DNA of 64,000 bases from positions 17,732 to 81,731 of the forward strand of contig JBGCFN010000005.1 in NCBI GenBank assembly GCA_045106935.1, in the 5' to 3' direction. Source of the DNA: Gammaproteobacteria bacterium (GTDB lineage Bacteria > Pseudomonadota > Gammaproteobacteria > UBA4575). The notes under the pieces were generated by a model. That model was not told the origin of the DNA and made no database searches. It saw only the letters and a list, made by a program, of their open reading frames with translations. Shown here in pieces: positions 14,728 to 59,305 of this stretch (the first letter of the stretch is position 1; each line of letters starts with the position of its first letter). The translations under genes and the position numbers were made by a program.

Positions 14728-16575
14728 ATGTCTTTGATATATGATTCACTAAAGCAAGCGCAGCAGAAAAGAAAATCTAATCACTTAGATAATGCGTCTG
14801 CTGTGTCTTCAATTAATGAAGATAATCTTATGAATATATCTAGTTCCGAAGATAATTCAATTTCTATACCTAGTGAACCTATGGATAAGCAAGCTTTGCA
14901 AGAACAGTTGATTCAATCGCTTAAACGCAAAAATATTGTGTCAGACAGTGATGTCGCTAATGTTCAACGTATGTGTGATGAAAAACCAGAAGCATCTTTT
15001 TTATCACTGCTTGCAAGAATGGGCATTGCCAGTGATGCCGATATTGCAGAGGTGCTTAGTGATGTATTAGATCTGCCTTTAGCAACTAAAGCAGAATTTC
15101 CTGTTGAAAATATTACGGGGGAATTAATTTCTCAAAGATTCTTAAAAGATCAGAATGTCATTCCTTTAATGATAGACGAGCAACAGGTGCTCGTTGCCAT
15201 GTCGGATCCGACTGATATTGAAACACAACAAGCAATCTCTATGGCGTGTGACCGCGCTATAGATGTCAAAGTCGGTATAGCTTCAGAGATAAACAGCAGC
15301 ATAGATGTGTTATTTGGTGACCGTGCATCGCAGATGGATCAAATACTTGATGATGTTGCGCTGGAAGAGATATCAGATGAAGAAGTTGATCACCTAAAAG
15401 ACTTGGCAAGTGAGGCTCCAGTTATCCGTTTGGTAAATTTGTTGATTCAGCGCGCTGTTGAGCAACATGCATCTGATATTCATATCGAACCTTTTGAAGG
15501 CCAATTAAAAGTGCGCTATAGAATAGACGGCGTGCTTAAAGAGGTTGAATCACCCTCTAAACAATTTGCTGCAGCGATTATTTCGCGTATTAAAATCATG
15601 GCGAAATTAGACATTGCAGAAAGAAGGCTGCCTCAAGATGGAAGAATTCGCACTCGCATGCAAGGGGTGGATTTTGATATGCGAATATCAACAATACCAA
15701 CAATGCATGGTGAAAGTGTTGTCATTCGTTTGTTAAATCAAGAAAGCGTTGTCCTCAATTTTGAATCATTAGGGTTTAGTCAAGATGTTCAAAATGCCTT
15801 GGAAGAGGTATTACGAATGCCTCATGGGATGGTGTTAATCACGGGTCCGACAGGAAGTGGCAAGACAACCTCATTATATACAGCACTGAATATGCTGAAT
15901 GAACCCAATAGAAAAATTATTACCGTCGAGGATCCGATTGAGTATCAGCTTGAAGGAATTAATCAGATCCAAGCAAAATCTTCTATAGGGTTAACTTTCG
16001 CCAGTGCGCTTAGATCAATAGTTCGTCAAGACCCAGATGTCATTATGGTGGGCGAAATGAGAGATCTAGAAACCGCAGAAATCTGTATTAAATCAGCCTT
16101 GACCGGACATTTAGTACTGTCAACATTACATACGAATGATGCTGCCTCGTCTATCACAAGATTAATAGAAATGCGGGTAGAAGATTATCTGTTAACCTCA
16201 ACATTAAATGCCGTTATTGCTCAACGTCTGGTGCGTGTGCTTTGTAAACACTGCAAACAAACGCAACCGATTTCGCAGAAGCTATTAGATGAATGTGAAA
16301 AAAACCATATTAATGTGAATGGTGAATCGCAAATTTGCGTTGCTGATGGCTGTGCAGAATGTGGAGGAACCGGTTATTCAGGTAGAATTTGTATTGTTGA
16401 AGTTCTTCGATTAGACGAAGATATAAAGAAGAAAATTTTAGAACGTGTCGATGCGGGTGAGTTACAGCGTTTTGCAGTTGAACAAGGAATGCAAACCATG
16501 TATCAAGATGGCCTTGCGAAAGTATTGCAAGGTGTCACTACACTTGAAGAAGTGACTCGAGTGACCCAAGAGTAA
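14728..16575 (+). CDS. gspE: type II secretion ATPase GspE (the annotated start may be too far upstream; an alternative start is the ATG at about 14881)
   Basis: Walker A GPTGSGKTT, Asp/His boxes and a C-terminal tetracysteine CKHC...CAECGGTG. The N1E-like region starts near residue 80. Confidence 0.9.
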   Translation: MSLIYDSLKQAQQKRKSNHLDNASAVSSINEDNLMNISSSEDNSISIPSEPMDKQALQEQLIQSLKRKNIVSDSDVANVQRMCDEKPEASFLSLLARMGIASDADIAEVLSDVLDLPLATKAEFPVENITGELISQRFLKDQNVIPLMIDEQQVLVAMSDPTDIETQQAISMACDRAIDVKVGIASEINSSIDVLFGDRASQMDQILDDVALEEISDEEVDHLKDLASEAPVIRLVNLLIQRAVEQHASDIHIEPFEGQLKVRYRIDGVLKEVESPSKQFAAAIISRIKIMAKLDIAERRLPQDGRIRTRMQGVDFDMRISTIPTMHGESVVIRLLNQESVVLNFESLGFSQDVQNALEEVLRMPHGMVLITGPTGSGKTTSLYTALNMLNEPNRKIITVEDPIEYQLEGINQIQAKSSIGLTFASALRSIVRQDPDVIMVGEMRDLETAEICIKSALTGHLVLSTLHTNDAASSITRLIEMRVEDYLLTSTLNAVIAQRLVRVLCKHCKQTQPISQKLLDECEKNHINVNGESQICVADGCAECGGTGYSGRICIVEVLRLDEDIKKKILERVDAGELQRFAVEQGMQTMYQDGLAKVLQGVTTLEEVTRVTQE

Positions 16576-43638: not shown

Positions 43639-44187
43639 ATGAAAATAGCCCTAATATCCCTTCTATTTTATCTGGTTATTAATACTAATTTTGTCTTAGC
43701 AGAGACAAATTACTACTTACAACCAGGTGATGTACTGTCTGTTTCTGTCTGGAAGGAAGAAGATTTACAGCAATCTGTTCTTGTACGTCCCGATGGAGGC
43801 ATTTCATTTCCGCTTGTTGGAGATATTCGTGCGAGTGGTAAAACGGTGGAAGATGTCCGCCAAATAATAACGAGAAAACTAGCAAAGTTAATCCCAGACG
43901 TTCAAGTGAGTGTGGCGTTACAAGAACTAAATGGTAATTTAATTTATGTCGTTGGAAAGGTGAATCGGCCTGGAGTGTTCCCATTTAGTAAAAATGTAGA
44001 TGTATTACAAGCGTTGGGAATGGCAGGAGGGGCGACAGCTTTTGCTGGTTTAAATGAAATAAAAATATTACGTAGATCTTCTGGCCAATTGAAGTCAATA
44101 CCATTTCGTTATGTCGATATAGAGAAAGGCAGAAATCTACAGCAAAATATAATTTTGCATAGTGGTGATACCGTTCTTGTTCCATAA
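43639..44187 (+). CDS. Wza-like polysaccharide export protein (Poly_export/SLBB), PEP-CTERM-locus type
   Basis: Signal peptide, then YYLQPGDVLSVSVW and PLVGDI.ASGKTVEDV, 182 aa. First gene of the EPS locus. Confidence 0.7.
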   Translation: MKIALISLLFYLVINTNFVLAETNYYLQPGDVLSVSVWKEEDLQQSVLVRPDGGISFPLVGDIRASGKTVEDVRQIITRKLAKLIPDVQVSVALQELNGNLIYVVGKVNRPGVFPFSKNVDVLQALGMAGGATAFAGLNEIKILRRSSGQLKSIPFRYVDIEKGRNLQQNIILHSGDTVLVP

Positions 44188-44193
44188 AAACTA

Positions 44194-45390
44194 ATGATCG
44201 TTAGAGATTCTATGAAAGTAATAACATTATCAATTTTAGCGCTAATATCATTTGCAACAGTATCCAATGTGGTGCTTGCGGATGGATGGTTTTATCAAAC
44301 AACTTTTAGTTCTCAACTTGAAGCAGATGATAATAAACGTCTACGAACAGATGACGAGAAAGGAGTGATTGGTGCAAATGCACGAATCGATATTAAACTT
44401 TCTAATGTGACTGAAATTAGTGAAGTATATGTTCGAGGTGCTCTTCGTTCAGTGCGCTATGATGGAAGTGAAGATCGAGGAATAGATACGGATGATCAAT
44501 TATTATATGCAGGAGGTCGCTGGAACGGTGAACGTTCACAGTTCTCAATTGATGGGGAATTTCTTAGGCAGTCATCACAGCTAACAGAGTTAACAGATAC
44601 TGGATTCTTTGATGATGTGGATCGTCGAGTAACTAAGTCAATTGAGCCGCAGTATTCATATATATTATTTGAAGACACACAAGCATTTGTTGGGCTTAAT
44701 TACGAAGAAGTTGATTTTCCAAATAGTATTCCCGTTAATTTGACGGAATATACTGTTGAAGGCGGAAATCTTGGTGTGATTCATACAATTAATGAATTAA
44801 ATTCTGTCACCGCAAGTGTATTTCATTCTCAATATGAAGCAGATACATTCTCTAATGAAGTTGATACAACTGGTGTCAATGTCCGATATGCTAAAACCAT
44901 TAATGAATTATGGGATGCTTATGCGCAAGTGGGATACCGCAAATCAAATTTTAAAAATGTGGTTTCGGGAATTGTTGTGCGTGATGATGATACTGGTGAA
45001 TCTTATGATGTCGGCGCAACACGGCAATCAGAATTATCTACACTAAATGTATCTGCCAGTAATGAATTACAACCTAGTGCATCTGGTGATGTGAATGAAC
45101 GGTTAACGTTAAATTTTGCTTACAATCGATCGTTTAGTGACTATTGGGCAGGATTAATAGATTTTATTTGGCTAAATAATGAATCGGTTAATAATGAGGG
45201 TAATGATAATGACCGTGAATATTGGCAATTTACATTAGGTGCAGATTATCGAATAACACCTGCATGGACAGCCACAGCGCGTCTTCGTCATAGAGAGCAA
45301 AATAGAGATGATATTTCGGGTTCTCGAGCAGAATCTGATGCAGTGATATTAGGTATTCGTTACGCTGGTAATAATAAAAGAATAAAATAG
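44194..45390 (+). CDS. putative outer-membrane beta-barrel protein of the EPS locus
   Basis: Signal peptide, alternating amphipathic strands and a C-terminal aromatic residue pattern. No specific family assignable. Confidence 0.35.
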   Translation: MIVRDSMKVITLSILALISFATVSNVVLADGWFYQTTFSSQLEADDNKRLRTDDEKGVIGANARIDIKLSNVTEISEVYVRGALRSVRYDGSEDRGIDTDDQLLYAGGRWNGERSQFSIDGEFLRQSSQLTELTDTGFFDDVDRRVTKSIEPQYSYILFEDTQAFVGLNYEEVDFPNSIPVNLTEYTVEGGNLGVIHTINELNSVTASVFHSQYEADTFSNEVDTTGVNVRYAKTINELWDAYAQVGYRKSNFKNVVSGIVVRDDDTGESYDVGATRQSELSTLNVSASNELQPSASGDVNERLTLNFAYNRSFSDYWAGLIDFIWLNNESVNNEGNDNDREYWQFTLGADYRITPAWTATARLRHREQNRDDISGSRAESDAVILGIRYAGNNKRIK

Positions 45391-45392
45391 TA

Positions 45393-47165
45393 ATGGATAA
45401 TGCAACTAGTGAGTTTGAAGATGCACTCGAGCCAGAGAAAAGTCTTGGTGACTGGATTCGAGCTGTTAAAAGAAGAAAAGTAGCTGTTGCTGTCACTGCA
45501 AGCATATTACTCATCGCGTCTGCTTTATTGGCTTTCTTGTTACCGGCTAAATATCAGTCGGCGGGGACAATTTTAATTGAGCAGCAGGAAATCCCGCAAG
45601 ATTTTGTTCGGTCGACTATTACGACCTTTGCTGATCAGCGACTTCAAGTGATCAAGCAACGTGTTATGACTTCCACTAATTTGTTTCAAATTATAAACAA
45701 ATTCAATCTCTATCAGGATATGTTGCAAGAAGAGCCGAGAGAGGTTGTTCTTGAAGAGATCAGAGATGCTATTTCGCTTGATTTTATCAGTGCTGATGTG
45801 ATCGACCCACGCAGTGGAAGACCCGTTCAAGCAACTATTGCTTTTAAAGTCTCTTACGAGCATGAATCGCCAGCGTTAGCACATAAAGTTGCCAATGAGA
45901 TTACAGGTTTATTCCTCAATGAGAACATTAAAGAACGCACGCAAAAAGCTCAAGATGCAACAAAATTTTTAGAAGATGAAGCTGATAAATTAGAAGGTGA
46001 GATAAATAAACTTGAGGAAAATTTAGCAGAGTTTAAAACGGGTAACGTAGAGAAGTTACCAGAACTTGTATCCATGAATTTAAACTTAATGGATAGAACA
46101 GATCAAGAGATTAAGCAAATTGATCAGCAGTTACGAACACTTAGGGAAAGACAAATATATTTGCAATCTGAGCTTGCTCAGATGAATCCAAATCAAGCTT
46201 TATTTAGTGAGCAGGGTGAACGTTTGCTCGGTTCAGGTGACCGTTTGAAAATCCTTAAAATAGAGCTTGCACAATTATTGGGGGTATATTCTCCGAATCA
46301 TCCAGATGTATTAAGAACAAAGCGTGAAATATCAGCTTTAGAAAAAGATAGCGGACAAAATAGTAGTGGCTTTAAAGAAATTAATGCTGAATTACAATTG
46401 TTGAGACAACGACTTCAGGAAGCAGAGTTGAAATATTCTAAAAATCATCCTGATGTTAAGTCGCTTAAACGTTCTATTGCAGGTTTAGAAAAGTCACTTA
46501 ACGATTCTGATTTTAATGCAGAATTTCAAGTCAATAGTAGCAATGTATCTAATCCAGCATATTCACAGTTATTAGCTCAATTGGATGCGTCTAAATCTGA
46601 AATTAATAGTCTCAAGATTACGCGTTCATCACTACAAACAAAAATAAAAATGTTGGAGAGAAGGTTAATTGAATCTCCAGAGGTTGAACGCAAGTATAGA
46701 GCATTAGTACGAGACTATGATAATGCTCGAGCAAAATATGCTGATGTCAAAGCTAAGCTTTCTGAAGCAAAAATAGGAGAGTCATTAGAACTAGGGAAGC
46801 AAAGTGAACGATTTACTATAATCGAGCCACCATTGCTGCCTGAACAGCCAGTCAGTCCCAATCGACCTGCTATTTTATTATTAGGAGTTTTATTGAGCGG
46901 CATTACAGCACTAGGCGTTGTACTGCTAAAAGAAAGTTTGGATGATGCAATTTATGACCGTACAACTGTTCTCCAAATGACTGGTTTTATGCCAATTGCT
47001 GTTTTGCCTACTATGTATACTATTGAGGAAGTATCAAAGACTAATAATACAAAGTTATTTTTATTAGGTATGGGTTTAATTGGCACGGCTTGTTTACTTA
47101 CGTTAATTCATATTTTTTATCTTCCACTTGATGTGCTTTTTTATAAAATTCTGAGAAAAATATAA
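45393..47165 (+). CDS. polysaccharide chain-length determinant (Wzz/PCP) protein, PEP-CTERM-locus subfamily
   Basis: N-terminal TM, a long coiled-coil periplasmic region and a C-terminal TM. 590 aa. Confidence 0.65.
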   Translation: MDNATSEFEDALEPEKSLGDWIRAVKRRKVAVAVTASILLIASALLAFLLPAKYQSAGTILIEQQEIPQDFVRSTITTFADQRLQVIKQRVMTSTNLFQIINKFNLYQDMLQEEPREVVLEEIRDAISLDFISADVIDPRSGRPVQATIAFKVSYEHESPALAHKVANEITGLFLNENIKERTQKAQDATKFLEDEADKLEGEINKLEENLAEFKTGNVEKLPELVSMNLNLMDRTDQEIKQIDQQLRTLRERQIYLQSELAQMNPNQALFSEQGERLLGSGDRLKILKIELAQLLGVYSPNHPDVLRTKREISALEKDSGQNSSGFKEINAELQLLRQRLQEAELKYSKNHPDVKSLKRSIAGLEKSLNDSDFNAEFQVNSSNVSNPAYSQLLAQLDASKSEINSLKITRSSLQTKIKMLERRLIESPEVERKYRALVRDYDNARAKYADVKAKLSEAKIGESLELGKQSERFTIIEPPLLPEQPVSPNRPAILLLGVLLSGITALGVVLLKESLDDAIYDRTTVLQMTGFMPIAVLPTMYTIEEVSKTNNTKLFLLGMGLIGTACLLTLIHIFYLPLDVLFYKILRKI

Positions 47166-47167
47166 TT

Positions 47168-47971
47168 GTGGACAAAATTACAAAAGCGCTAGATCTCACC
47201 AGAGCAAAGAGAGACAAGCAGAATTCTGTTTCGCCAATCACCGAAAGAAGTGATGCTGTGCAATTTCCTAGGGCGAATTCTTACGCGATAAAAGAATTTA
47301 GTCCGAATGCTCTAACTTTAGAAAAAAACAGAATTCTCAATAGTGCTAGTCGTGAAGAGATGATTCAACCATATAAAGTGTTGAGAACGCGATTAATGCA
47401 TATCATGCAAGAGAAAGATTGGCGCTCTATTGCTGTGATAAGCCCAGCTAAAGATGAAGGTAAGTCTACTGTAGCGATCAATTTGGCTATTAGTATAGGT
47501 AATAGCCGAAAAGAAAATGCAGTATTGTTAGATTTGGATTTATTAACACCATCTATACATTCTTATTATGGTTATCAGCCTGACGTGGGATTAGATGAGT
47601 ATTTTAAACAAGATAAGCCGCTAAAAGAAATTTTAGTGTCACCAGGTATAAAAGGTTTGGCAATAGCACCATCAATTAAGCCATTGCATGATTCATCTGA
47701 GTATTTGTCAACGACTAAAGGTGCAGATTTAATACGTGAAGCAAATTCAGTATATGATGATTCAATTGTCATTGTTGATTTGCCGCCGATTCTTGTAAGT
47801 GATGATGCTATATCATTTCTACCGCATGTTGATGCTGTGTTATTGGTGATTAGAGAAGGTCAAACTAATAAGCTAGAACTGCAACGGGCCCAAGAGATGC
47901 TTGCTGGCGTAAATATTGCTGGTGTTGTCATTAATGATTCCTTGGAGCCTGCAACATTAGGCTATTACTGA
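47168..47971 (+). CDS. ParA/MinD-like tyrosine-kinase-type ATPase (EpsG-like)
   Basis: Deviant P-loop SPAKDEGKST and a Walker B IVIVDLPP. Confidence 0.6.
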   Translation: MDKITKALDLTRAKRDKQNSVSPITERSDAVQFPRANSYAIKEFSPNALTLEKNRILNSASREEMIQPYKVLRTRLMHIMQEKDWRSIAVISPAKDEGKSTVAINLAISIGNSRKENAVLLDLDLLTPSIHSYYGYQPDVGLDEYFKQDKPLKEILVSPGIKGLAIAPSIKPLHDSSEYLSTTKGADLIREANSVYDDSIVIVDLPPILVSDDAISFLPHVDAVLLVIREGQTNKLELQRAQEMLAGVNIAGVVINDSLEPATLGYY

Positions 47972-48008
47972 TTCAAATTTTAGAGTAGCTGCTTAAATAT
48001 AACTGCCT

Positions 48009-48830
48009 ATGTATAACAGTCATTTTGGATTGAGCGAAAAACCATTCGCATTATCACCAGATCCTGATTTTCTATACTTCACAAGTAGCCATCGTCTAGC
48101 AATGACGATGTTGGAGTATGGTATTCAAAATGAATCTGGATTTACATTAATTAGTGGTGATGTAGGGTGTGGTAAAACCACATTAATTAGATATCTATTG
48201 CGTAGCATTGATAAAGATCATGTGGTTGGCTTAATTAGTAATACACATGAATCATTTGGGGATCTTATTGATTTAGTATTGTTAGCATATGGATTAGATT
48301 ATAAAGATAAAACTAATATTGAAAAATATCATACATTTGAAGATTTCTTATTAGAGCAATATCGCTCAGGTAAGAGTACATTATTAATTGTTGATGAGGC
48401 TCAGAATCTTAGCCCTAAAATGTTAGAAGAACTTAGAGTAATTTCTAATATTAATTCTGGCAAGGATCATGTTTTTCAAATTATCCTATCGGGTCAGCCA
48501 GAAATTAGAGAAACATTAAGATTGCCAGAATTGAAGCAATTTGCTCAGAGAATATCATCTGACTTTCATCTTAAGCCATTAACTCTTGATCAGTTAACAG
48601 AATATATAAAATATCGATTGGAAGTGGCTGGAGCTAAACGCATGCTATTTACCGATAAAGCTATTCGAATGGTATTTAATTTTAGTAAAGGTGTGCCTAG
48701 AGTGGCGAATACATTTTGTGATTTAGCAATGATATATGCATTTGCTGATGGGTTAGACGTTGTGGATTGGAAGACGGTGATGAGTGTAGCTATCGATAAG
48801 AAAAACAGTGGTGCAATTGGAATATTATAA
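48009..48830 (+). CDS. ExeA-like AAA ATPase, PEP-CTERM-system associated type (no peptidoglycan-binding domain)
   Basis: FALSPDPDFLYFTSSHRLAMTMLEYGI plus Walker A SGDVGCGKTT. It is a paralogue of the gspA N-terminal half at 12078. Confidence 0.75.
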   Translation: MYNSHFGLSEKPFALSPDPDFLYFTSSHRLAMTMLEYGIQNESGFTLISGDVGCGKTTLIRYLLRSIDKDHVVGLISNTHESFGDLIDLVLLAYGLDYKDKTNIEKYHTFEDFLLEQYRSGKSTLLIVDEAQNLSPKMLEELRVISNINSGKDHVFQIILSGQPEIRETLRLPELKQFAQRISSDFHLKPLTLDQLTEYIKYRLEVAGAKRMLFTDKAIRMVFNFSKGVPRVANTFCDLAMIYAFADGLDVVDWKTVMSVAIDKKNSGAIGIL

Positions 48831-48846
48831 AGTAATGAGTAATTAA

Positions 48847-50445
48847 ATGAATGCGACAAATGTAACTGGTGAAGTTGGTCAGAAAATAAATGTATGGAGA
48901 TTTACATTACGACAAATTGGCTTAGTTGTTGTTTCATTTATATTATTATATTTTCTTTTTGAGGAGGGAATATTACATGCGATTCAAAAATGGGACTCAC
49001 CCGAATATAGTCACGCATATTTAATTCCTTTCATATCTCTATTTATAATTTGGCAGAATCATTCTGAATTTATCAAGTATAGATTCAGTGGATCATGGCT
49101 GGGAGTACTCATCTTACTGGTCGGTTTATTTTTATTATTGTTGGGAGAGATGAGTACTCTCTATATTATTATAAAATATTCATTGTTGGTCGTTATATTT
49201 GGTTTGGTCTTGTCTCTGACAGGAGTTAAAAGATTTCATTATTTTCTTTTTCCAATCTTTTTATTGTTTTTCACCATACCTTTACCTAACTTCATTTATA
49301 ACAATCTATCAGCATATTTGCAGCTAATTTCATCTAGCATTGGCGTTGAAGTGATTAGATTGTTTGGAATTAGTGTCTTTTTAGAGGGTAATGTCATTGA
49401 TCTTGGAAATTATAAGCTACAGGTAGTAGAGGCTTGTAATGGACTAAGGTATTTATTCCCACTTGTCACATTGGGTGTAATAGCAGCATATTTTTATAAT
49501 GACAGCTTTTGGAAAAAATGTATTGTCGTTATTTCAACGTTACCAATTACCATTCTTATGAATAGTATACGCATAGGTGTTATCGGTATATTAGTAGAGC
49601 ATTGGGGCATTGCTATGGCTGAAGGCTTTCTGCATGATTTTGAAGGCTGGATTATCTTTATGGTGTGTTTTTCAATTTTATTAATTGAGATGTGGCTATT
49701 AACAAAATTGACAACAGGAAGATCGTTGAGAGATGTGTTAAGTATTGAAGTACCCACCAAGCTGAATATGAATAACTTTAATGTGTCTGAAAGACATATT
49801 CCTAAACCGTTTTATGTTTCTGTTTTTATATTGTTATTAATATTGTTTGCACAGTATGCATTACCAGAAAGACGGGAAAATGTACCAGAAAGAAGCCAAT
49901 TCATTGAATTTCCTGTTGATATATCTGGATGGCAGAGTACTCGCAAGTCTATGGAAGCCAAATTCATCAATGCACTTAAATTTGAAGATTATTTGCTCGC
50001 GAATTACTCCAGCAATGCTGGGGCATTAGAATTATACATTGCATATTACGAATCTCAGCGAAAAGGTGAGTCTGCACACTCACCAAGATCATGTCTTCCA
50101 GGTGCTGGCTGGAAAATTACAGATAGAGGTTTGGTTAATATTAGTTATAAAAATCATGTAAATATTGACACGCAAATACCAGTAAGTCGTATGTTGGTTC
50201 AACAAGGTGATAGTAGATACTTAATGTATTACTGGTTTAAGCAACGAAACAGGCATATCACGAATGAATATTTAGTTAAATGGTATTTATTTTTAGATGG
50301 AATAATAAAAAATAGAACTGATGGTGCATTAATTAGAATAATGTTCCCTATTGCACAGCATCAAGATATAAGTACAGCCGATGAAACAGTACAGTTATTC
50401 TTGCAAGAAACATTGCCTATTTTGCCTGAATTTGTACCAGATTAG
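48847..50445 (+). CDS. xrtA: exosortase (XrtA-like) fused to a C-terminal EpsI-family domain
   Basis: Polytopic N-terminal half with the exosortase catalytic motif VVEACNGLRYL and the Arg motif LMNSIRIG. C-terminal soluble domain with SPRSCLPGAGW (EpsI-like). Confidence 0.75.
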   Translation: MNATNVTGEVGQKINVWRFTLRQIGLVVVSFILLYFLFEEGILHAIQKWDSPEYSHAYLIPFISLFIIWQNHSEFIKYRFSGSWLGVLILLVGLFLLLLGEMSTLYIIIKYSLLVVIFGLVLSLTGVKRFHYFLFPIFLLFFTIPLPNFIYNNLSAYLQLISSSIGVEVIRLFGISVFLEGNVIDLGNYKLQVVEACNGLRYLFPLVTLGVIAAYFYNDSFWKKCIVVISTLPITILMNSIRIGVIGILVEHWGIAMAEGFLHDFEGWIIFMVCFSILLIEMWLLTKLTTGRSLRDVLSIEVPTKLNMNNFNVSERHIPKPFYVSVFILLLILFAQYALPERRENVPERSQFIEFPVDISGWQSTRKSMEAKFINALKFEDYLLANYSSNAGALELYIAYYESQRKGESAHSPRSCLPGAGWKITDRGLVNISYKNHVNIDTQIPVSRMLVQQGDSRYLMYYWFKQRNRHITNEYLVKWYLFLDGIIKNRTDGALIRIMFPIAQHQDISTADETVQLFLQETLPILPEFVPD

Positions 50446-50464
50446 CTGTTGATAGAGAATATAT

Positions 50465-52081
50465 ATGCAGTTTTATACAATATTTTTGGTGGCAATGTTC
50501 GCGGCAATTATTTTAATTCCACCACTAACTTATATCTACCAGAAATTAAATATTGTTGATTTACCTGCTGCAAGGAAAGTACATAAAAAACCTATTCCTA
50601 GAGTAGGTGGTATAGCAATTGTTGTTGCAACTATATTTCCAATCATTGCTTGGATTCAGTTGGATGCACCAATATTGGGTGTGTTAATAGGAATTGCGAT
50701 ATTATTTATTTTGGGAATTATTGATGATGCTAGGAATCTATCCTATAAGATTAAATTTATTATTCAAATCCTATCTATTTCTTTAGTGTTTATATATGGG
50801 TTTGTAGATTTGAATGCATCACATTTTGTCGCAAAAGAATTAGTCCCATATGCAGTATTGTTTACAGCCTACTTCTTATTTATTTTAGGTGTAACTAATG
50901 CGATAAATTTGTCTGATGGTTTGGATGGTCTAGCAGGTGGAGAAGCTTTATTGTCCTTTAGTGTGATTGGGTTGCTAGCGTATGAAACGAATAATAGTCT
51001 AATCATTCTTTTAGTATTAGCTATAGTTGGCGCAGTCTTTGGTTTTCTAAGGTTTAATACTTATCCAGCAAAAATATTTATGGGTGATACGGGCAGCTTG
51101 TTTTTGGGGTTTGTCCTAGGCTTGCTTAGCGTTGCTTTGACATATCGTGTTGACAATGCATATGCAAAAATGTTGCCGCTATTGTTGGTGGGACTGCCAG
51201 TGTTAGACACGTTAATGGTAATGATAATTAGATTGTATCATGGAAAATCTCCTTTTAATGCTGACCGAAATCATTTGCATCATCGTCTTTTAGATCATGG
51301 TTTTGCACATTATCAAAGTGTATTAATTATTTATCTTATACAAAGTATATTTGTATTAACTGCGTATTTCATGCGTTATGACACAGAAGTAAATGTGTTA
51401 ATAGCATTTACGATTATTTCAATTTTGGCAATATCGATAAGTTATGCAACTACTAAAGACAATAAGCCAATACTAAGTAATAGTATCGTTAATAAAATTT
51501 TTAATATATCTAGAGACATTGTAAATATTCATACTGAAAAATTGTTTTCTATTCTTGGGGTATTGTTATTGCTGTATACATTAACGGCATCGTTTGCTGT
51601 TGATAAATTCGATAAAGATATATTACTTTTATTATTGGTCATTAGTGTTATAGGTATGATTGGGTTAATTCTGTTAAGAGAAAAGCCTTGTCATTGGATA
51701 GAAAGAGTTGCCATTCATGTGATGATTGTGCTGTCTATATACTTTGGTGTTGGCGTCAATCAAGGAAATATAATGGATGTATTTCAGATTGGCATACTGC
51801 TGGTAAGCGTGGTCATTATTGTTCTGTTATTTTTAGGTGAAGGAAGAAAAAAATTCATTGGTTCGCCATTGGATTTTTTATTAATAGCAACTGCTATTGT
51901 GATACCGAATTTACCAAATTCACCAATAGCTAATCATGGGCTAAGTCTGTTAATACTAAAGTTAGTCGTGCTTTTCTATTGTGTGGAATATGTTTTGTTT
52001 AACGTGACTAGTCATTGGTGGGTAATTCGTTTGACTTTGATAATTGGTGCTTTTGTACCAATTATTTTAAATTATATATAG
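50465..52081 (+). CDS. WecA/MraY-family polyprenyl-phosphate sugar-1-phosphate transferase (GT4) with roughly 200-aa extra C-terminal TM region
   Basis: DDxxN (IIDDARNL), NAINLSDGLDGLAGG and KIFMGDTGSLFLGF motifs. Confidence 0.7.
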   Translation: MQFYTIFLVAMFAAIILIPPLTYIYQKLNIVDLPAARKVHKKPIPRVGGIAIVVATIFPIIAWIQLDAPILGVLIGIAILFILGIIDDARNLSYKIKFIIQILSISLVFIYGFVDLNASHFVAKELVPYAVLFTAYFLFILGVTNAINLSDGLDGLAGGEALLSFSVIGLLAYETNNSLIILLVLAIVGAVFGFLRFNTYPAKIFMGDTGSLFLGFVLGLLSVALTYRVDNAYAKMLPLLLVGLPVLDTLMVMIIRLYHGKSPFNADRNHLHHRLLDHGFAHYQSVLIIYLIQSIFVLTAYFMRYDTEVNVLIAFTIISILAISISYATTKDNKPILSNSIVNKIFNISRDIVNIHTEKLFSILGVLLLLYTLTASFAVDKFDKDILLLLLVISVIGMIGLILLREKPCHWIERVAIHVMIVLSIYFGVGVNQGNIMDVFQIGILLVSVVIIVLLFLGEGRKKFIGSPLDFLLIATAIVIPNLPNSPIANHGLSLLILKLVVLFYCVEYVLFNVTSHWWVIRLTLIIGAFVPIILNYI

Positions 52082-52103
52082 CTAAAATTAATATTTTATT
52101 TCA

Positions 52104-54506
52104 GTGTTACTGAAGGAGTTTGTTGTGAGTAAGTTTTTAATTGTTACATTGTGCGCTGTTTTAGTCATTAGTGGATGTGGTGGAGCTGAGTCAAGGAAAG
52201 AAAAATACATTCAAAGTGGTAATCAACACTATATACAAGATGATTGTAATAAAGCCAAATTAGACTATAAAAATGCACTGCAAATTGATCCAAAAAGTGT
52301 AGATGGGCTTATTGGGTTGGCTAGATGTATGCTAGAAGAGAAAGAGTGGCGTAAAGGATATCAATTGTTAAATGGTGCGTTAGAGCATGACCCTACATCT
52401 GTTGATGCCAAATTGGATTTGGCAAAACTATATTTAATATCAGGTGAAAGTGATAAATCTTATCAATTGATAGAAGAGATATTAACTGCTGAATCTAATA
52501 ATTCTACAGCAATTGCATTAAGAGGTATTTTTCACTTGAAAAATAATACGCTTTCTGCAGCAAGAACTGACTCTGAAATTGCTATTAACCTCGAAGCAGA
52601 TAACTTATCAGCGATTACTTTGTTTTCATCTCTTAAAGTTAAAGATGGAAAGACAGACCAGGCTGCAACGTATATCAGTGATATTGTTAATAATAAAGAA
52701 ATTACTAAGCGTAAAAAGAAAGAGCTACAAGTAATACTAATTGCGTTATACGACCAGCTTAAAGATATTGACAGTGTTATAGATATTTATAAGGATTTAA
52801 TTACACAGTATCCTGATAATTACAGTTATATTTATAGATTATCAGCTATCTATGCTAACAATGATGAAGTTGATCAGGCTGAAGAATTATTATTGACGAG
52901 TATTGATTCTGATGACAGCGATAGTCAGTTAGCCTATATTTCTTTTCTAGATGCTTATAGATCATCTGGTGATGCAACTAAAAAACTAGAAGAGTTTAGT
53001 GCGCAATCTAACAATGGCAAGTTAAAGCTTGCGCTTGGTAAACGCTATCTTGCGAGCAATGAAGAAGAGAAGGCGATATCAGTTTTTACTGACTTGGCCG
53101 GTAAGATAACAATTGTAGAGCATAATGAGGCTAAAAATGAACTAGCATTTTTGCATTTAAAAAATGGTAAATCTGATTTAGCGTTAGAATTAGTCCAGCA
53201 AGTATTATCTGATCAACCAAACAATCTAAGAGCACTAGTCATACGTGGCACATTGGCTATATCTGAGCGTGATGCACCTCAGGCAGTATCGGATTTTAGG
53301 ACGATTTTGCGTGATCAACCTAATAATATTTTTGCTATTAGACAGCTAGCTACAGCATATATATTAAATGACCAAGAAGATTTGGCTAAAGAGTTGTTGC
53401 AGAAAGCTGTCAACATTGATAGTCATGATAAGGCATTAGGCTTGTTGTATGCGCGTCTTCAGGGTAAGGATAATGAATTTGAATCTGCAATTAATACTGT
53501 TAATGAGCTGTTAGAGTCTAATGAAGAAGATCTAGAAACAATTAAAACATTATTTGATTTGCAGATTGCTAACAAAGACTTTGAGGGGGCTAAACATACT
53601 GCTGCAACTATGAAAGCATCGTTGAAAGATAATCCGTTAGGGTATTATCTTTCTGGAGTGTTGTTGCAGAATGAAAACAACAATCTAGCTGCAGAAAAAG
53701 AGTATTTAACTGCACTAGATAAAGAACCGCGTGCAAATGAACCATTATCAGGGTTGGTTAGATTGTATTTGTCTGAAGGTAAGCCTAATAAAGCAATTGA
53801 TCTATTAAATGACATTGTTAGCAAAGATCCTGAGTATTTGGTGCCTTACAATCTTTTAGGTGAGGTAGGTATTAGTATAGAAAATTATTCTTTAGCTGAA
53901 GATAGTTTTAATACTGCAATCAAACTCAATAAACAATGGTGGGTTCCGTATCGAGGTCTTTCCTTAGTACATTCAGCTAAAGGCAATAAAGAAAAATCAA
54001 TTCAAGTGTTACAACGTGGATTTGATAATGGTGTTGGCATTGAACGATTAGGGCTTGAATTAGCGTTAAATCAATATCAGCTAGGTGATAGATCTTCGGC
54101 AATTAATACTTATGAGAAAATTATCTCTGAAATTCCAACGTCCGCATTAGCAAAAAATAATTTATCAATGATTTTGGTTGACGATCAAGCAAATGATCAA
54201 GATATAAATAATGCACTTAATCTTATTGCTGATCTTGAAAAAATTAATGATGCAGCTTCATTAGACACTGTTGGTTGGGTCTACTACCGAGCTGGAAAAT
54301 TTAATCAAGCAATTGAATATTTAGCTAGGGCTGTTGAATTAGCACCGAATGCAGCTGAACTTCATTATCATTTGGGGATGGCCTATGCTGAAGATGGTAA
54401 TAGTCCTGAAAAAGCTAAGCAACATTTGAAGATAGCTGCTGAATCTGAACAAAGTTATGTAGGTAAAGACGTAGCTATTGCTAAGTTTAAACAACTGTCG
54501 CTTTAA
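52104..54506 (+). CDS. PEP-CTERM-system-type TPR-repeat lipoprotein
   Basis: Lipobox LVISGC and about 800 aa of TPR-like repeats. Its context after the exosortase matches the PrsT-like family. Confidence 0.65.
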   Translation: MLLKEFVVSKFLIVTLCAVLVISGCGGAESRKEKYIQSGNQHYIQDDCNKAKLDYKNALQIDPKSVDGLIGLARCMLEEKEWRKGYQLLNGALEHDPTSVDAKLDLAKLYLISGESDKSYQLIEEILTAESNNSTAIALRGIFHLKNNTLSAARTDSEIAINLEADNLSAITLFSSLKVKDGKTDQAATYISDIVNNKEITKRKKKELQVILIALYDQLKDIDSVIDIYKDLITQYPDNYSYIYRLSAIYANNDEVDQAEELLLTSIDSDDSDSQLAYISFLDAYRSSGDATKKLEEFSAQSNNGKLKLALGKRYLASNEEEKAISVFTDLAGKITIVEHNEAKNELAFLHLKNGKSDLALELVQQVLSDQPNNLRALVIRGTLAISERDAPQAVSDFRTILRDQPNNIFAIRQLATAYILNDQEDLAKELLQKAVNIDSHDKALGLLYARLQGKDNEFESAINTVNELLESNEEDLETIKTLFDLQIANKDFEGAKHTAATMKASLKDNPLGYYLSGVLLQNENNNLAAEKEYLTALDKEPRANEPLSGLVRLYLSEGKPNKAIDLLNDIVSKDPEYLVPYNLLGEVGISIENYSLAEDSFNTAIKLNKQWWVPYRGLSLVHSAKGNKEKSIQVLQRGFDNGVGIERLGLELALNQYQLGDRSSAINTYEKIISEIPTSALAKNNLSMILVDDQANDQDINNALNLIADLEKINDAASLDTVGWVYYRAGKFNQAIEYLARAVELAPNAAELHYHLGMAYAEDGNSPEKAKQHLKIAAESEQSYVGKDVAIAKFKQLSL

Positions 54507-54820
54507 TGCTGAAGATAATATGGGATTAAGTTATTGATATCAGGTTGTTCTGATGATTGCTGAATTCCTTGTATAACTTGGAATTCAGCTTCTGTAATGA
54601 GTTCATTTGCCTGCGCAAAATTATTAGTCTCCGCTTGTTTCCTAGCCTTTGATGTCAAGTCTTTGGTGTCTCGCCATAAACTATTTGCAAGTGTAGCTTT
54701 TTGTATTAATTCATTAACTGTATTGATGCGTTCAATTAGTTCTTGGTATTTTTCTTCATTACTATGTACAGATATAGAATAGACTAGTAATAAAATCACA
54801 ATATAAATATGTTTATTCAT
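54503..54820 (-). CDS. small secreted protein, last gene of the sox unit (possibly a SoxK-like SoxAX-stabilising subunit)
   Basis: Signal peptide MNKHIYIVILLLVYSISVHS, 105 aa. It lies immediately downstream of a monohaem soxA. Confidence 0.25.
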   Translation of the reverse strand: MNKHIYIVILLLVYSISVHSNEEKYQELIERINTVNELIQKATLANSLWRDTKDLTSKARKQAETNNFAQANELITEAEFQVIQGIQQSSEQPDINNLIPYYLQH

Positions 54821-54824
54821 AATT

Positions 54825-55664
54825 TTATCTTCTTACTGCAGGACCATTAATAGCTAGTCCATTATTCATGTGTGTATGAAAATACTCTAAGTTTCTATAT
54901 ATTTCGCTCTGAGCTTCAAATGGTGCCGCTCGAACTTGTTTGTTGCATCCGATATATCTTTTATGTAATGGTCCTAATGCCCCCCATTTATTGCGATAAG
55001 TAGGCCATCCTGTCGTTTGACCTAGTGCTGGGCCAAGAGACTCGGTTCGCAATTTTTTTCCAGCATTATCGAAATGACAATGAAAGCATGCGAAATTCAA
55101 TTGCCCACGTCTTGTAAAGTAGAATTTTTTTCCTTTTTGATAGGCTTCTAATGCATTCTCATTAGGTATTCTAATGTTTATAATTTCTCCTCTGCTTTGG
55201 TAGGCAATATATGCAACCAAGCTATTCATCTCCATGCCCATATAATCTAGTTCATCTAATTCATGAGATTGTCTGCATAAATTAATTGCATAGGGCAGAG
55301 TAATCACTGTATTTAGCTTGTCATCCCAACTAGGGTAGTTGTGTTTAATTGAAGGGCCAGAGGGAAAACATTTGCTATAAATTGCACTATTGTTATGCCA
55401 ATACTCTTCACCAGAGTCAATATGTACCTCATATGGAGGGAATTCTTCCAGGGCTTCCCAGTTCTCTCTTGCGGTACTGTCTAATGCATAGACGCCATTA
55501 GCGAAATCTTCGAAAGGCACCTCAGGAAAACGCTTTTTAAAATAACTTTGTATTAAATTAAGATCTTTAATATGTTCAGATGCTGGTGACTCAGCTCTGG
55601 TAATGTCAGTAATTGATAGGGATGCTGCAATTAATAGACAAAATGTAAAAAAAATATTTCGCAT
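54825..55664 (-). CDS. soxA: SoxA-like c-type cytochrome (single CxxCH)
   Basis: Signal peptide, a haem site FACFHCHFDNAG and a SoxA-like C-terminal region (IGCNKQVRAAPF). Adjacent to soxX and soxY. Confidence 0.6.
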   Translation of the reverse strand: MRNIFFTFCLLIAASLSITDITRAESPASEHIKDLNLIQSYFKKRFPEVPFEDFANGVYALDSTARENWEALEEFPPYEVHIDSGEEYWHNNSAIYSKCFPSGPSIKHNYPSWDDKLNTVITLPYAINLCRQSHELDELDYMGMEMNSLVAYIAYQSRGEIINIRIPNENALEAYQKGKKFYFTRRGQLNFACFHCHFDNAGKKLRTESLGPALGQTTGWPTYRNKWGALGPLHKRYIGCNKQVRAAPFEAQSEIYRNLEYFHTHMNNGLAINGPAVRR

Positions 55665-55678
55665 ACTGTTTGAAGCTT

Positions 55679-56131
55679 TTATCCGCCACAGCCACCGATT
55701 GTCACTTTGATGCTTTTAGAAGCAGTAAAGTGTTGATTATCAGATGTAGATACTAGCGCGATAATGTTTGATGATTTGGCCATTTTTACTCGTGTAGAGA
55801 CGTAAGCTTCAATCTTCGGATTGATATCATAGGATGATGTTAAAGGGCTAGGGTTGTTATCGACTAAAATAGATATCATATTGACGTTGTCGATTGTTGT
55901 GTTAACTGTAATTGGAACCACAGCTCAATTTTCAGCAATTTCTGGTGCCTTGATATGGATTGCATCACTGGCATTTGCTGTTTGATTACTAGTCAATTTG
56001 CTGATTAGGTCATCAACATTTGCATGGTCAAATAACTCTTTTTGCCAGTCAGCAAAAGCAAAATTAACTCCACTGAAAAGAGGGAGGGCTAATAAGGTGC
56101 TTGTATTTTTTAGAAATGTTCTTTTAAGCAT
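55679..56131 (-). pseudogene. soxY: soxY interrupted by an in-frame TGA at 55925-55927 (conserved Gly codon position). Could be a nonsense mutation, a read-through or a sequencing error.
   Basis: ORFs 55925..56131 and 55679..55921 are in the same frame. Joined they read ...IHIKAPEIAEN*AVVPITVN...KVTIGGCGG. The Tat-like signal, the APEIAEN(G)AVVP motif and the C-terminal GGCGG are SoxY hallmarks. Confidence 0.6.
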
Positions 56132-56139
56132 AGTAATAC

Positions 56140-56478
56140 CTATAGAGCGTGTATAAAGTCAACGACTTGATCTATTTCTTCTTCTGTTAATATGCGATGT
56201 TTACCAAATGGCGGCATCACTGTAATAGGGTTAAATTGGGTTTCGTCCCAGATTCTTTGTCGTAATAGAGATTTATCTGGATAACGCTGCTTCATGTTTA
56301 TAAGCGCAGGACCAATATTTCCCGGGCTTTCTCCACCCTCTATTGCATGACATGCTAGACAATTACCTTTAGTTCTATCAAATGCTAATTGCTTGCCATC
56401 AGCGTATGAAATTGAGCTTATTGCTGCAAATATGCAGATAATTAAAATGTTACATTTTGTTTTAGCTAGATTGAGCAT
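56140..56478 (-). CDS. soxX: SoxX-like monohaem cytochrome c
   Basis: Signal peptide and GNCLACH haem motif, 112 aa, directly upstream of soxY. Confidence 0.6.
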   Translation of the reverse strand: MLNLAKTKCNILIICIFAAISSISYADGKQLAFDRTKGNCLACHAIEGGESPGNIGPALINMKQRYPDKSLLRQRIWDETQFNPITVMPPFGKHRILTEEEIDQVVDFIHAL

Positions 56479-56713
56479 AATTCCAAGCTAATTGTAAAAA
56501 CTGTCTGGAGGGCTTTAATTTTATTTACTGACAGTATGATAGCGTGACTCTGAACGTCTATCTACTAGTTTGGTGGTATCGGTAGCTGCTGATTGTTTAT
56601 TTAGAGATTTTAGTATTTTATTAAAAATCTCATTGGTCTGCGTACGAATTTTATTTTTCATATTATCCTCAAGACTGTAACGGCAGTCTCAGGAATATGT
56701 TGATGGATGATTA

Positions 56714-59305
56714 CTATTTAGTGTGATATTGATCAGCAATTCTATAATTGAGTTCCCTTAACTTGTTGTTATTTAAGGTAATATTGAGGCTTTCTATAGG
56801 CCTTAGTTTGTCAGAATAATTGACCAATGCAGGTGCGTTTAGGTCTATCTCATTAAAGGCTATAAATATCACTGGATGACCGTGCCATTCATGTGGAATC
56901 GTCCATTGTTCATACATGCTGGCAGTTCTGCCTACGGCGTTCCTAGATAAAATATTATCAACTTGCTTGTCAACGTCGTAAAAACGTAAGGAGCTTGCGA
57001 TTGACCATTTGCTCAAACCAACAATGAGTGGTTTTTGACCGGTTTCATTCTCTAGTTGTTTCTCTAGCATGTCTAATTCGTATGCTGTTTGTTGCCAAAA
57101 ATAATGGTTTGTGACTTGAGTATTTATATTTATTGGTAGCCCTAAAGCTGCGTAGTGGAGTATTGCACCATAAATTAAACCTAGAATGGCTGTCGACAGC
57201 AAAGTTAATTTTGTAAATAACTTCTTGTTTGTAAAATTTGAAGTCGGGCTTAAGGCAAATGATATTAATGGAATGGCAATTAACCAGATTGGTGCAGTCC
57301 AATGGAATCGAGGGTAATGAGTGAAACTAAAATACACATATACCAATAAGGGTATGAATGTAAATATGACAAAAAACTGTTTGTAAGTTTTGATGGTTGA
57401 TTTGTTTTGGATTTTATCCTGCAGTAGAGAAGTTATGTTTCTATACGCATTAATGATGAATAATAATATTAATGGAGAGAGAAGAATCATTAAATGAAGT
57501 AATAAGTAATGAGTCGAAAATTCTATAGTTCGATCCAATCGGCGAGTGGTTTGAAATAAAAATGAGCTCCATTCATTTTGTGCATTCCAATAGAGAGTAG
57601 GTGAAAATATCAATAGAGAAATTACTCCAGCAATATATAAAATAGGTTGCTTCCACCATTGTCTGGTTGCTTGATTAACGCTTATAAAAATAATAATGCT
57701 AATTGCAAACAGCGCGATTGAGTACTTTGAAAGCATTCCGATTCCTATACAAATGCCTAAGCTCAGCCAGGAACCGGCCGACTTTTCGAATGTAATCTTT
57801 GCAATAAAGTATAAACATGCAGCCCATATAGCTATTTGTAGTGCATCAGTTGTCGCCAAAAACCCAGTGACTGCTGCAAATGGAATAACGGAAGTCAGTA
57901 TGAGAGAAATATATGCAGAGGTCTTATCAAAGAGCATTGAGCTGAGACGAAATACAAAATATAAAGTGACTATTCCACTAATATATGAAAAAAATCTCAC
58001 ACCAAATTCATTGTCACCAAATACGCTTGTTGCAAGCCATATCAACCAAGCGACCATAGGTGGATGATCTAAGTAGCCTAAGCTTAAATGCTCTTTATAA
58101 TTCCAGTAATATGCTTCATCAGGTATTAATTCAGTTGTGCCTAAGTATAAAAAGCGCAATATCAACATAAAGCCGGTAATTGCAATAGCTAATACTCGCC
58201 AATTGATAGAGCTATATTTAAAGCTATTAGAAGTATTTGCAGGAAATACAATAAATGAGGCAGCAAAATAGTTTACTAAAGCTGCTGCAATAATGGCGGG
58301 ATAAATAGCAAAACCAGGACTGAAATTTAATAAATTGATCAGAATAGCGAGAACTCCGCCACGGATAGTCAGTGCAATCAAGCCAAAGTAAATATACTTT
58401 ATTGCTTTACTCAGCCAGCTATTAAATGAGTTATGTATGTATTTAAATGACCAAATTGAGTTTAAAATATAGTTGAAGGTAGCAGCAATAAAAAAACTGC
58501 TGATATGAGCGCTAGCAATGCTCCATCCTTTACCTAAGAATAATTGGAAGAATAATGCATCTATTACTACACCTAGAATACCAACCATCATAAAACGGCC
58601 AGTAGTAGAACCGCTAACTCTTCCACCGCTTAATTCAATCAAGCGCTGAAAATATTGAATGAGTTGTTTGCCTGAAAGTTTAGACTCACCAAGCACTCGA
58701 TCTGTAAATACAATAGGTGTTTCAGTGACTCGAAATTTGTCTAAGCCTGATGCAAGTAACTCCAATAGTACTTTATAGCCTCTAGCATTTTGGTCAATAT
58801 CGGAAAAACAGGTTTTTTTACAAGCAAAAAAACCTGATGTAGTATCTTTTACATCAGTCAGGACTCTTGCAGGTAATCCACCAAACCATGATAAGAATCG
58901 TCTGTGTGCTGGCCAGTTAGCGATGCCGCCATTTTTGGTGTAGCGACTACCCACGACGACATCATGAGTACCGTTAATGATTGGCTTGAGTAAATCTGGT
59001 ATGCAATCTATGGGATGGCTTAAGTCAGCATCCATTACTAAGATATACTCAGAATGACTAGTTGCTACTCCATCTAAGATGGCTTGTGTTAAATCTGGAT
59101 GGCCCGTGCGTTGCAGTACTGATATCCAGTTGAAACGCTGGCTCCAAGCATTAATTTTTTCTATCGTATTGTCTTTAGACTGGTCATCGACAAACAAAAT
59201 TTCAAGATCGCAATTCTCAATTTTAAGTTGAGTCAACCCTTCTAGAAGCGGGTCAATATTATCCTGTTCATTCAGCGTGGGAATGACTATTGTAGCACTG
59301 CTCAT
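56714..59305 (-). CDS. three-module glycosylation fusion: N-terminal GT2 polyprenyl-phosphate sugar synthase (DPM1/ArnC/GtrB-like), GtrA-like TM segment, and a large GT-C (PMT/ArnT-like, GT39/83-type) membrane glycosyltransferase
   Basis: IVIPTLNEQDNI...VDDQSKDNT...VMDADLSHP (GT2 DxD). GtrA-like FMMVGILGVVIDALFFQLFL. GT-C signature ELIPDEAYYWNYKEHLSLGYLDHPPMVAWLIW followed by about 10 TMs. 863 aa. Confidence 0.65.
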   Translation of the reverse strand: MSSATIVIPTLNEQDNIDPLLEGLTQLKIENCDLEILFVDDQSKDNTIEKINAWSQRFNWISVLQRTGHPDLTQAILDGVATSHSEYILVMDADLSHPIDCIPDLLKPIINGTHDVVVGSRYTKNGGIANWPAHRRFLSWFGGLPARVLTDVKDTTSGFFACKKTCFSDIDQNARGYKVLLELLASGLDKFRVTETPIVFTDRVLGESKLSGKQLIQYFQRLIELSGGRVSGSTTGRFMMVGILGVVIDALFFQLFLGKGWSIASAHISSFFIAATFNYILNSIWSFKYIHNSFNSWLSKAIKYIYFGLIALTIRGGVLAILINLLNFSPGFAIYPAIIAAALVNYFAASFIVFPANTSNSFKYSSINWRVLAIAITGFMLILRFLYLGTTELIPDEAYYWNYKEHLSLGYLDHPPMVAWLIWLATSVFGDNEFGVRFFSYISGIVTLYFVFRLSSMLFDKTSAYISLILTSVIPFAAVTGFLATTDALQIAIWAACLYFIAKITFEKSAGSWLSLGICIGIGMLSKYSIALFAISIIIFISVNQATRQWWKQPILYIAGVISLLIFSPTLYWNAQNEWSSFLFQTTRRLDRTIEFSTHYLLLHLMILLSPLILLFIINAYRNITSLLQDKIQNKSTIKTYKQFFVIFTFIPLLVYVYFSFTHYPRFHWTAPIWLIAIPLISFALSPTSNFTNKKLFTKLTLLSTAILGLIYGAILHYAALGLPININTQVTNHYFWQQTAYELDMLEKQLENETGQKPLIVGLSKWSIASSLRFYDVDKQVDNILSRNAVGRTASMYEQWTIPHEWHGHPVIFIAFNEIDLNAPALVNYSDKLRPIESLNITLNNNKLRELNYRIADQYHTK

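Follow-up and report, generated by a model that had tools for sequence, protein, structure and literature searches.

The soxY gene on the minus strand at positions 55679–56131 of the window, by which we mean the whole 64-kb stretch of DNA that was analyzed (approximately 36% G+C), is interrupted by an in-frame TGA at codon 69, the codon of an invariant glycine, and in our best reading this is probably a very recent strain-specific nonsense allele in which the GGA codon of Gly69 became TGA. We infer that the change is present in the cells and is not confined to the consensus sequence. Translation of the interval gives 150 codons followed by a TAA terminator, with codon 69 as the sole internal stop; the preliminary description of this locus gave no strand, but its placement of the TGA at exactly codon 69 agrees with both the translation and the nucleotide sequence. 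The stop codon occupies positions 55925–55927, where the plus strand reads tca, and the changed base is position 55927 of the plus strand (C>A on the plus strand, G>T on the coding strand).

The interruption divides soxY into two open reading frames. The N-terminal ORF (55925–56131, minus strand; 68 aa and the TGA) contains a signal peptide and a linker that extends up to the sequence APEIAEN, and the second ORF, in the same frame and on the same strand (55679–55921; 80 aa), has a GTG start at codon 71, two codons past the TGA. Codons 70–150 and the TAA (55679–55924, minus strand) encode nearly the whole SoxY β-sandwich domain, and these codons have neither a further lesion nor a private substitution. 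When codon 69 is taken as glycine, the conceptual read-through product matches the Pfam SoxY model (PF13501) over residues 46–148 with a score of 115 bits (cut-off 28.4) and TIGR04488 (SoxY_true_GGCGG), the NCBIfam equivalog model for true SoxY, with a score of 162 bits (cut-off 125), in agreement with the original proposal that the two ORFs share a frame and together reconstitute a full SoxY. This arrangement cannot be a chance juxtaposition. Both sequence motifs that had been pointed out are present in the translation: APEIAEN-(Gly69)-AVVP (codons 62–73; 55913–55948, minus strand), which has the TGA in its middle, and the sulfur-carrying C-terminal arm GGCGG (codons 146–150; 55682–55696, minus strand), which is invariant in all aligned homologs and gives the read-through product the C-terminus VTIGGCGG. 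The leader, read from the translation as codons 1–27 (56051–56131, minus strand), was first described as Tat-like, a designation that suits its overall shape (MLKRTFLK...AFA) but not its arginine pair, given that Lys-Arg replaces the Arg-Arg of the Tat consensus. Arginine 4 of the leader is invariant among the aligned homologs and is preceded by either lysine or arginine, the KR form being present in most close homologs and the RR form in more distant ones; the putative cleavage site lies between AFA and DW, and export may depend on either Tat or Sec. An exported full-length SoxY requires an uninterrupted frame, which this gene lacks; as written, it is either a soxY pseudogene or an ORF cut short at 68 aa.

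The gene lies in a compact sox cluster in which all genes are on the minus strand. Upstream of soxY by 8 nt is soxX (56140–56478), which encodes a 112-aa mono-heme cytochrome c (TIGR04485, 99.6 bits versus a cut-off of 61), and downstream is soxA (54825–55664; 279 aa; TIGR04484, 216 bits versus a cut-off of 110), which starts 14 nt past the soxY TAA. The last gene of the cluster (54503–54820) encodes a 105-aa secreted helical protein that we refer to as SAXB-like (SAXB/SoxK) on the basis of a weak match to NF052674 (E 2.6e-9; 37.5 bits, below the cut-off of 95); its position is conserved in the related loci L002, L009, L013, and L134, and no other gene of the cluster evolves as fast (94.7% nucleotide identity and a pN/pS of 0.33 against a contig of the same species). 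The gene order soxX-soxY-soxA-(SAXB-like) is common to this clade (window 54503–56478, minus strand; L002 5177–7182; L009 5155–7134; L013 9654–11629; L134 298–2273), and in all five loci soxA directly follows soxY with a gap of 12–16 nt. With an HMM made from 78 SoxZ sequences, neither the window (64 kb) nor any of 14 related loci gave a match at E<1, and no soxZ was detected within approximately 6 kb of soxA in 11 related genomes. By comparison, 78 of the 91 unrelated metagenomic loci that have this SoxY motif, among the matches listed, carry soxZ directly after soxY. We presume that soxZ is encoded elsewhere in these genomes.

A polysaccharide locus and a glycosyltransferase gene flank the sox cluster on opposite sides. 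Immediately upstream of soxX and on the same strand is a gene for an 863-aa fusion of GT2, GtrA-like, and PMT_2 (ArnT-like) domains (56714–59305, minus strand), the position of which is conserved in L002, L009, and L013 and which has no obvious link to sulfur oxidation. On the other side, an exosortase/PEP-CTERM-type polysaccharide export locus (43639–54506, plus strand) is convergent with the sox cluster and overlaps the 3' end of the SAXB-like gene by 4 nt. Its genes encode a Poly_export/SLBB protein, an outer-membrane β-barrel protein, a GNVR chain-length protein, a ParA-like ATPase, an AAA protein, a fused EpsH-EpsI exosortase, a family-4 glycosyltransferase (Glycos_transf_4), and an 800-aa TPR lipoprotein.

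Comparison with homologs points to a private origin of the stop codon. A SoxY protein search returned full-length matches at 99%, 96%, 89%, and 82% identity, followed by many 153-aa orthologs. Position 69 is glycine in 18 of 18 aligned homologs, down to 51% identity, and is flanked in the alignment by the invariant columns A62, P63, I65, A66, E67, N68, A70, V71, V72, and P73; the solved structures of SoxY (2nnc and 2oxg/2ox5) share the sequence AENG. Glycine is thus typical of this position, as had been stated. The accompanying statement that the codon is typically GGA holds for the species itself and its nearest relatives but not across SoxY, where GGC and GGT dominate: among the 119 metagenomic loci in the matches listed, codon 69 is GGC in 71, GGT in 33, GGA in 9, and GGG in 6. 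The minority form GGA is the only glycine codon that is one step from TGA. All five relatives that were aligned as DNA have GGA at codon 69. Three of these are sequences of the same species, namely L012 (JBFPEK010112256; 98.9% identical over 1,319 nt), L134 (JBFPEL010050347), and L013 (ERZ28496113 ctg28562; 97.8% over 18.3 kb), and the others are L135, with 89% amino acid identity, and L002, a more distant ortholog. The same-species sequences with GGA number four in total, all from other assemblies and 97–99% identical to the window, and the related loci belong to MAGs of uncultured Gammaproteobacteria/Thiotrichales. Because the relatives carry GGA and Gly69 is invariant, the TGA is a private change, and the original suggestion that a single G>T substitution explains it is directly confirmed. 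When the metagenome collection was scanned with degenerate patterns, PEIAEN-TGA-AVVP matched 0 contigs and the control PEIAEN-GGN-AVVP gave at least 120 matches, and the contig index contains no exact record of the TGA-truncated 68-aa product; it likewise contains none of the window SoxA.

One of the same-species alleles has a composite appearance. The 5' half of the L134 soxY (645–1097) is identical to that of the window and the 3' half shares variants with the more distant allele of L135 (244–696), a distribution by which the L134 gene looks like a recombination mosaic among co-occurring strains.

To place the change among the other differences within the species, substitutions were polarized over a 2.4-kb sox region in the window and three same-species sequences. 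The window has 2 private substitutions, compared with 12 in L012, 32 in L134, and 52 in L013. One is the nonsense change at plus-strand position 55927 and the other is an A>T change (coding strand) at 54573 that results in K83I in the SAXB-like protein; both are protein-altering transversions that yield T on the coding strand. A longer alignment with ctg28562 covers 26 kb at 97.7% identity, with approximately 600 mismatches and two indels: one falls between genes, and the other is an extra T in ctg28562 by which the TPR gene of that contig itself is broken. In this alignment, soxY codon 69 is the only disruption of a gene on the window side, where the base-by-base comparison found no frameshift, and the 49 ORFs of the window have no other premature stop or frameshift. 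The pN/pS ratio against the same-species contig ranges from 0 to 0.33 in 15 of 15 genes compared (SoxA 0.10; SoxY 0.29; SoxX 0.27; these values reflect very few changes), and such ratios indicate that all 15 genes are under purifying selection. Derived amino acid changes are balanced between the window (35) and L013 (26) and, apart from Gly69, occur at variable sites. Relaxed selection on the sox cluster was rejected on the strength of its pN/pS values (0.10–0.33) and the location of its amino acid changes at variable sites, and general genome decay or a noisy assembly was rejected for the 26 kb compared, in which the window side has no other disruption. Given that the sox cluster is selectively maintained in the species, the lesion must be of extremely recent origin if it is real at all, and the fact that no second lesion has accumulated suggests a very young one.

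The 1-nt T insertion in ctg28562 (TTTGTAGGGG against TTTGAGGGG; L013 12522–12539 / L136 ~15586–15603, corresponding to window ~53584) splits the ortholog of the 800-aa TPR lipoprotein gene (window 52104–54506) into ORFs of 496 and 298 aa. Lesions or errors that break genes are therefore found in the sister assembly as well.

The alternative that survives best is that the TGA is a consensus, assembly, or sequencing error, in which case soxY would be intact, with GGA in the genome of the cells, and the coding-strand T would be a miscall; low coverage, G-oxidation damage (G>T / C>A), or a mis-polished MAG base could be its source. We consider such an error possible but somewhat doubtful. The source of the window appears to be a MAG, as the 68-aa product matches a MAG protein at NCBI (MFK8026569.1), and a wrong base can become fixed in such an assembly when coverage is low or strains are mixed. 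The stop is also a singleton at an invariant residue, every other same-species sequence has GGA, and the neighboring genes and the rest of soxY are intact and under purifying selection. Moreover, both private changes in the 2.4-kb region are the protein-altering transversions to T described above, and G>T is the classic artifact of oxidative damage. However, a consensus prone to error is difficult to reconcile with the lack of frameshifts and premature stops elsewhere in the 49 ORFs and in the 26 kb compared, the absence of frameshifts over the 26 kb being an argument against a noisy consensus, or with the amino acid differences from the same-species contig, which look like normal polymorphism; substitution errors that survive without indel errors are, furthermore, rare. 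We counted the absence of frameshifts and other premature stops from the window and its normal polymorphism pattern in favor of a real nonsense allele, together with the general observations that natural genomes usually hold several nonsense-inactivated genes and that stop-creating substitution errors in a consensus are rarer in assemblies without indel errors. Two points were counted against a real allele: the TGA was seen in no other assembly in the contig index or the metagenome scan, and soxX, soxA, and the rest of soxY are without decay, which an error predicts as well.

The preliminary description had offered programmed read-through as a third option beside recent pseudogenization and a sequencing error. 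The first two remain, the former as probable and the latter as the doubtful possibility just discussed, but read-through is not supported. Programmed recoding would have the UGA decoded, in a regulated or constitutive manner, to yield full-length SoxY, and we find this very improbable by any of the routes considered (near-cognate read-through by tRNA-Trp, a suppressor tRNA, selenocysteine insertion, or a reassigned code). UGA is the leakiest bacterial stop codon, the reading frame downstream of it is perfectly preserved, and a 9-bp hairpin begins at its last base. This hairpin, which has three G-U pairs, starts at the A of the UGA, and is the only downstream structure that we found, is nonetheless not significant (z = -0.79; 37 of 200 shuffles fold as well) and is made of coding sequence that the GGA-bearing strains share unchanged, and the region 54000–57500 has no Rfam match at E<=1. 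The TGA itself is missing from the 97–99% identical sequences of the same species and from all homologs, and near-cognate read-through would place tryptophan at an invariant glycine. UGA is a stop in this organism: in a census of 49 long ORFs (19,670 codons; 92% of the window), TGA ends 5 of the 49 and is absent in frame from the other 19,670 codons. Read-through is accordingly unsupported given a TGA that is not conserved within the species, that is a normal stop elsewhere, and that is accompanied by no recoding element and by no other SoxY with a TGA.

Individual forms of recoding were rejected on specific grounds. The in-frame UGA resembles that of bacterial selenocysteine recoding (UGA and SECIS); in contrast to those systems, the UGA is unconserved, the aligned residue is glycine and never cysteine or selenocysteine, and no significant downstream element is present, whether by fold or by Rfam match. 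Translation table 25 (Gracilibacteria/SR1) assigns UGA to glycine, the residue expected at codon 69, but UGA is used as a stop in the window and the organism, uncultured and of marine type, is a gammaproteobacterium; stop-codon usage and the lack of any other in-frame TGA also dispose of an alternative code in which UGA is read as glycine or tryptophan. Recoding conserved across SoxY is contradicted by the metagenome scan, in which 0 TGA stand against at least 120 GGN. We conclude that soxY is very unlikely to be a selenoprotein gene or a read-through gene: a SECIS element, cysteine or selenocysteine at the aligned position, conservation of the in-frame stop, and an atypical use of UGA elsewhere in the window were looked for and were absent. 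The only tRNA in the 64-kb window is Arg-TCG. We give as little credence to a real UGA that is decoded in part, whether through near-cognate read-through or by a suppressor tRNA not seen here, to yield a low level of full-length SoxY, a "leaky knock-down" and not a knockout.

Apart from its interrupted frame, the gene conforms to the SoxY family. It is similar to SoxY as defined by TIGR04488 and PF13501 and by the known structures (2nnc of Chlorobium limicola and 2oxg/2ox5, the SoxYZ of Paracoccus pantotrophus) in length, in its putative export leader, in the APEIAENG-AVVP motif, in the β-sandwich domain and C-terminal GGCGG arm, in the adjoining soxX and soxA genes, and, when read through, in a score above the equivalog cut-off. 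It differs in that the frame is broken at the invariant Gly69, in that soxZ does not follow, and in its Lys-Arg leader. Likewise, the locus resembles the canonical soxXYZA cluster in the co-location of soxX and soxA, both of which exceed the cut-offs of their models (TIGR04485 and TIGR04484), but soxY is followed by soxA without soxZ between them. Strain-specific nonsense pseudogenes, or segregating loss-of-function alleles, have the same characteristics as those described here, including one private substitution without secondary decay, an operon that is otherwise intact, and sister strains with intact alleles, and we found no feature that distinguishes the present case from them. A private nonsense substitution is an entirely ordinary phenomenon.

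If the nonsense allele is real, a canonical gene for a carrier in thiosulfate oxidation would just have been knocked out by one lineage-private transversion. With the TGA acting as an ordinary stop, translation would end after residue 68, and approximately 41 residues would be left once the signal peptide is removed. This truncated product would be without nearly the whole SoxY fold and without the cysteine arm GGCGG that carries the sulfur adduct, and we infer that it is inactive. As the fold and the cysteine arm would both be missing, no functional carrier is expected from this copy; in the established Sox model, SoxAX, SoxB, and SoxCD act on the Cys148 arm. Re-initiation at the GTG of codon 71 would yield an 80-aa fragment that, being leaderless, would be unable to reach the periplasm. 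Polarity from the early stop may, in addition, leave soxA and the SAXB-like gene less strongly expressed. Sulfur-oxidizing Gammaproteobacteria may have several soxY or soxYZ copies at separate loci, and multiple soxY are common (PMC11237559), so that a cell could lose one copy and still oxidize sulfur. Whether Sox function is lost in the cell thus depends on the presence of another soxY.

The interruption also affects how this genome is read. The public record MFK8026569.1 ([quoted passage not shown]) is identical to the 68-aa piece encoded at window 55925–56131 and has no flag of a soxY pseudogene. Since the record is a 68-aa hypothetical protein, Sox pathway calls from the MAG would miss SoxY, and a verdict of "Sox incomplete" from this MAG needs care irrespective of whether the TGA is an error. 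If it is an error, the public record, in which a 68-aa "hypothetical protein" stands for SoxY, needs correction. Beyond annotation, we regard the significance of the finding as small. If the TGA is real, one SoxY carrier has only just disappeared from this strain, whose oxidation of thiosulfate or sulfur could then differ from that of its sister strains, and the allele would be a small example of a loss-of-function polymorphism in a wild population of sulfur oxidizers.
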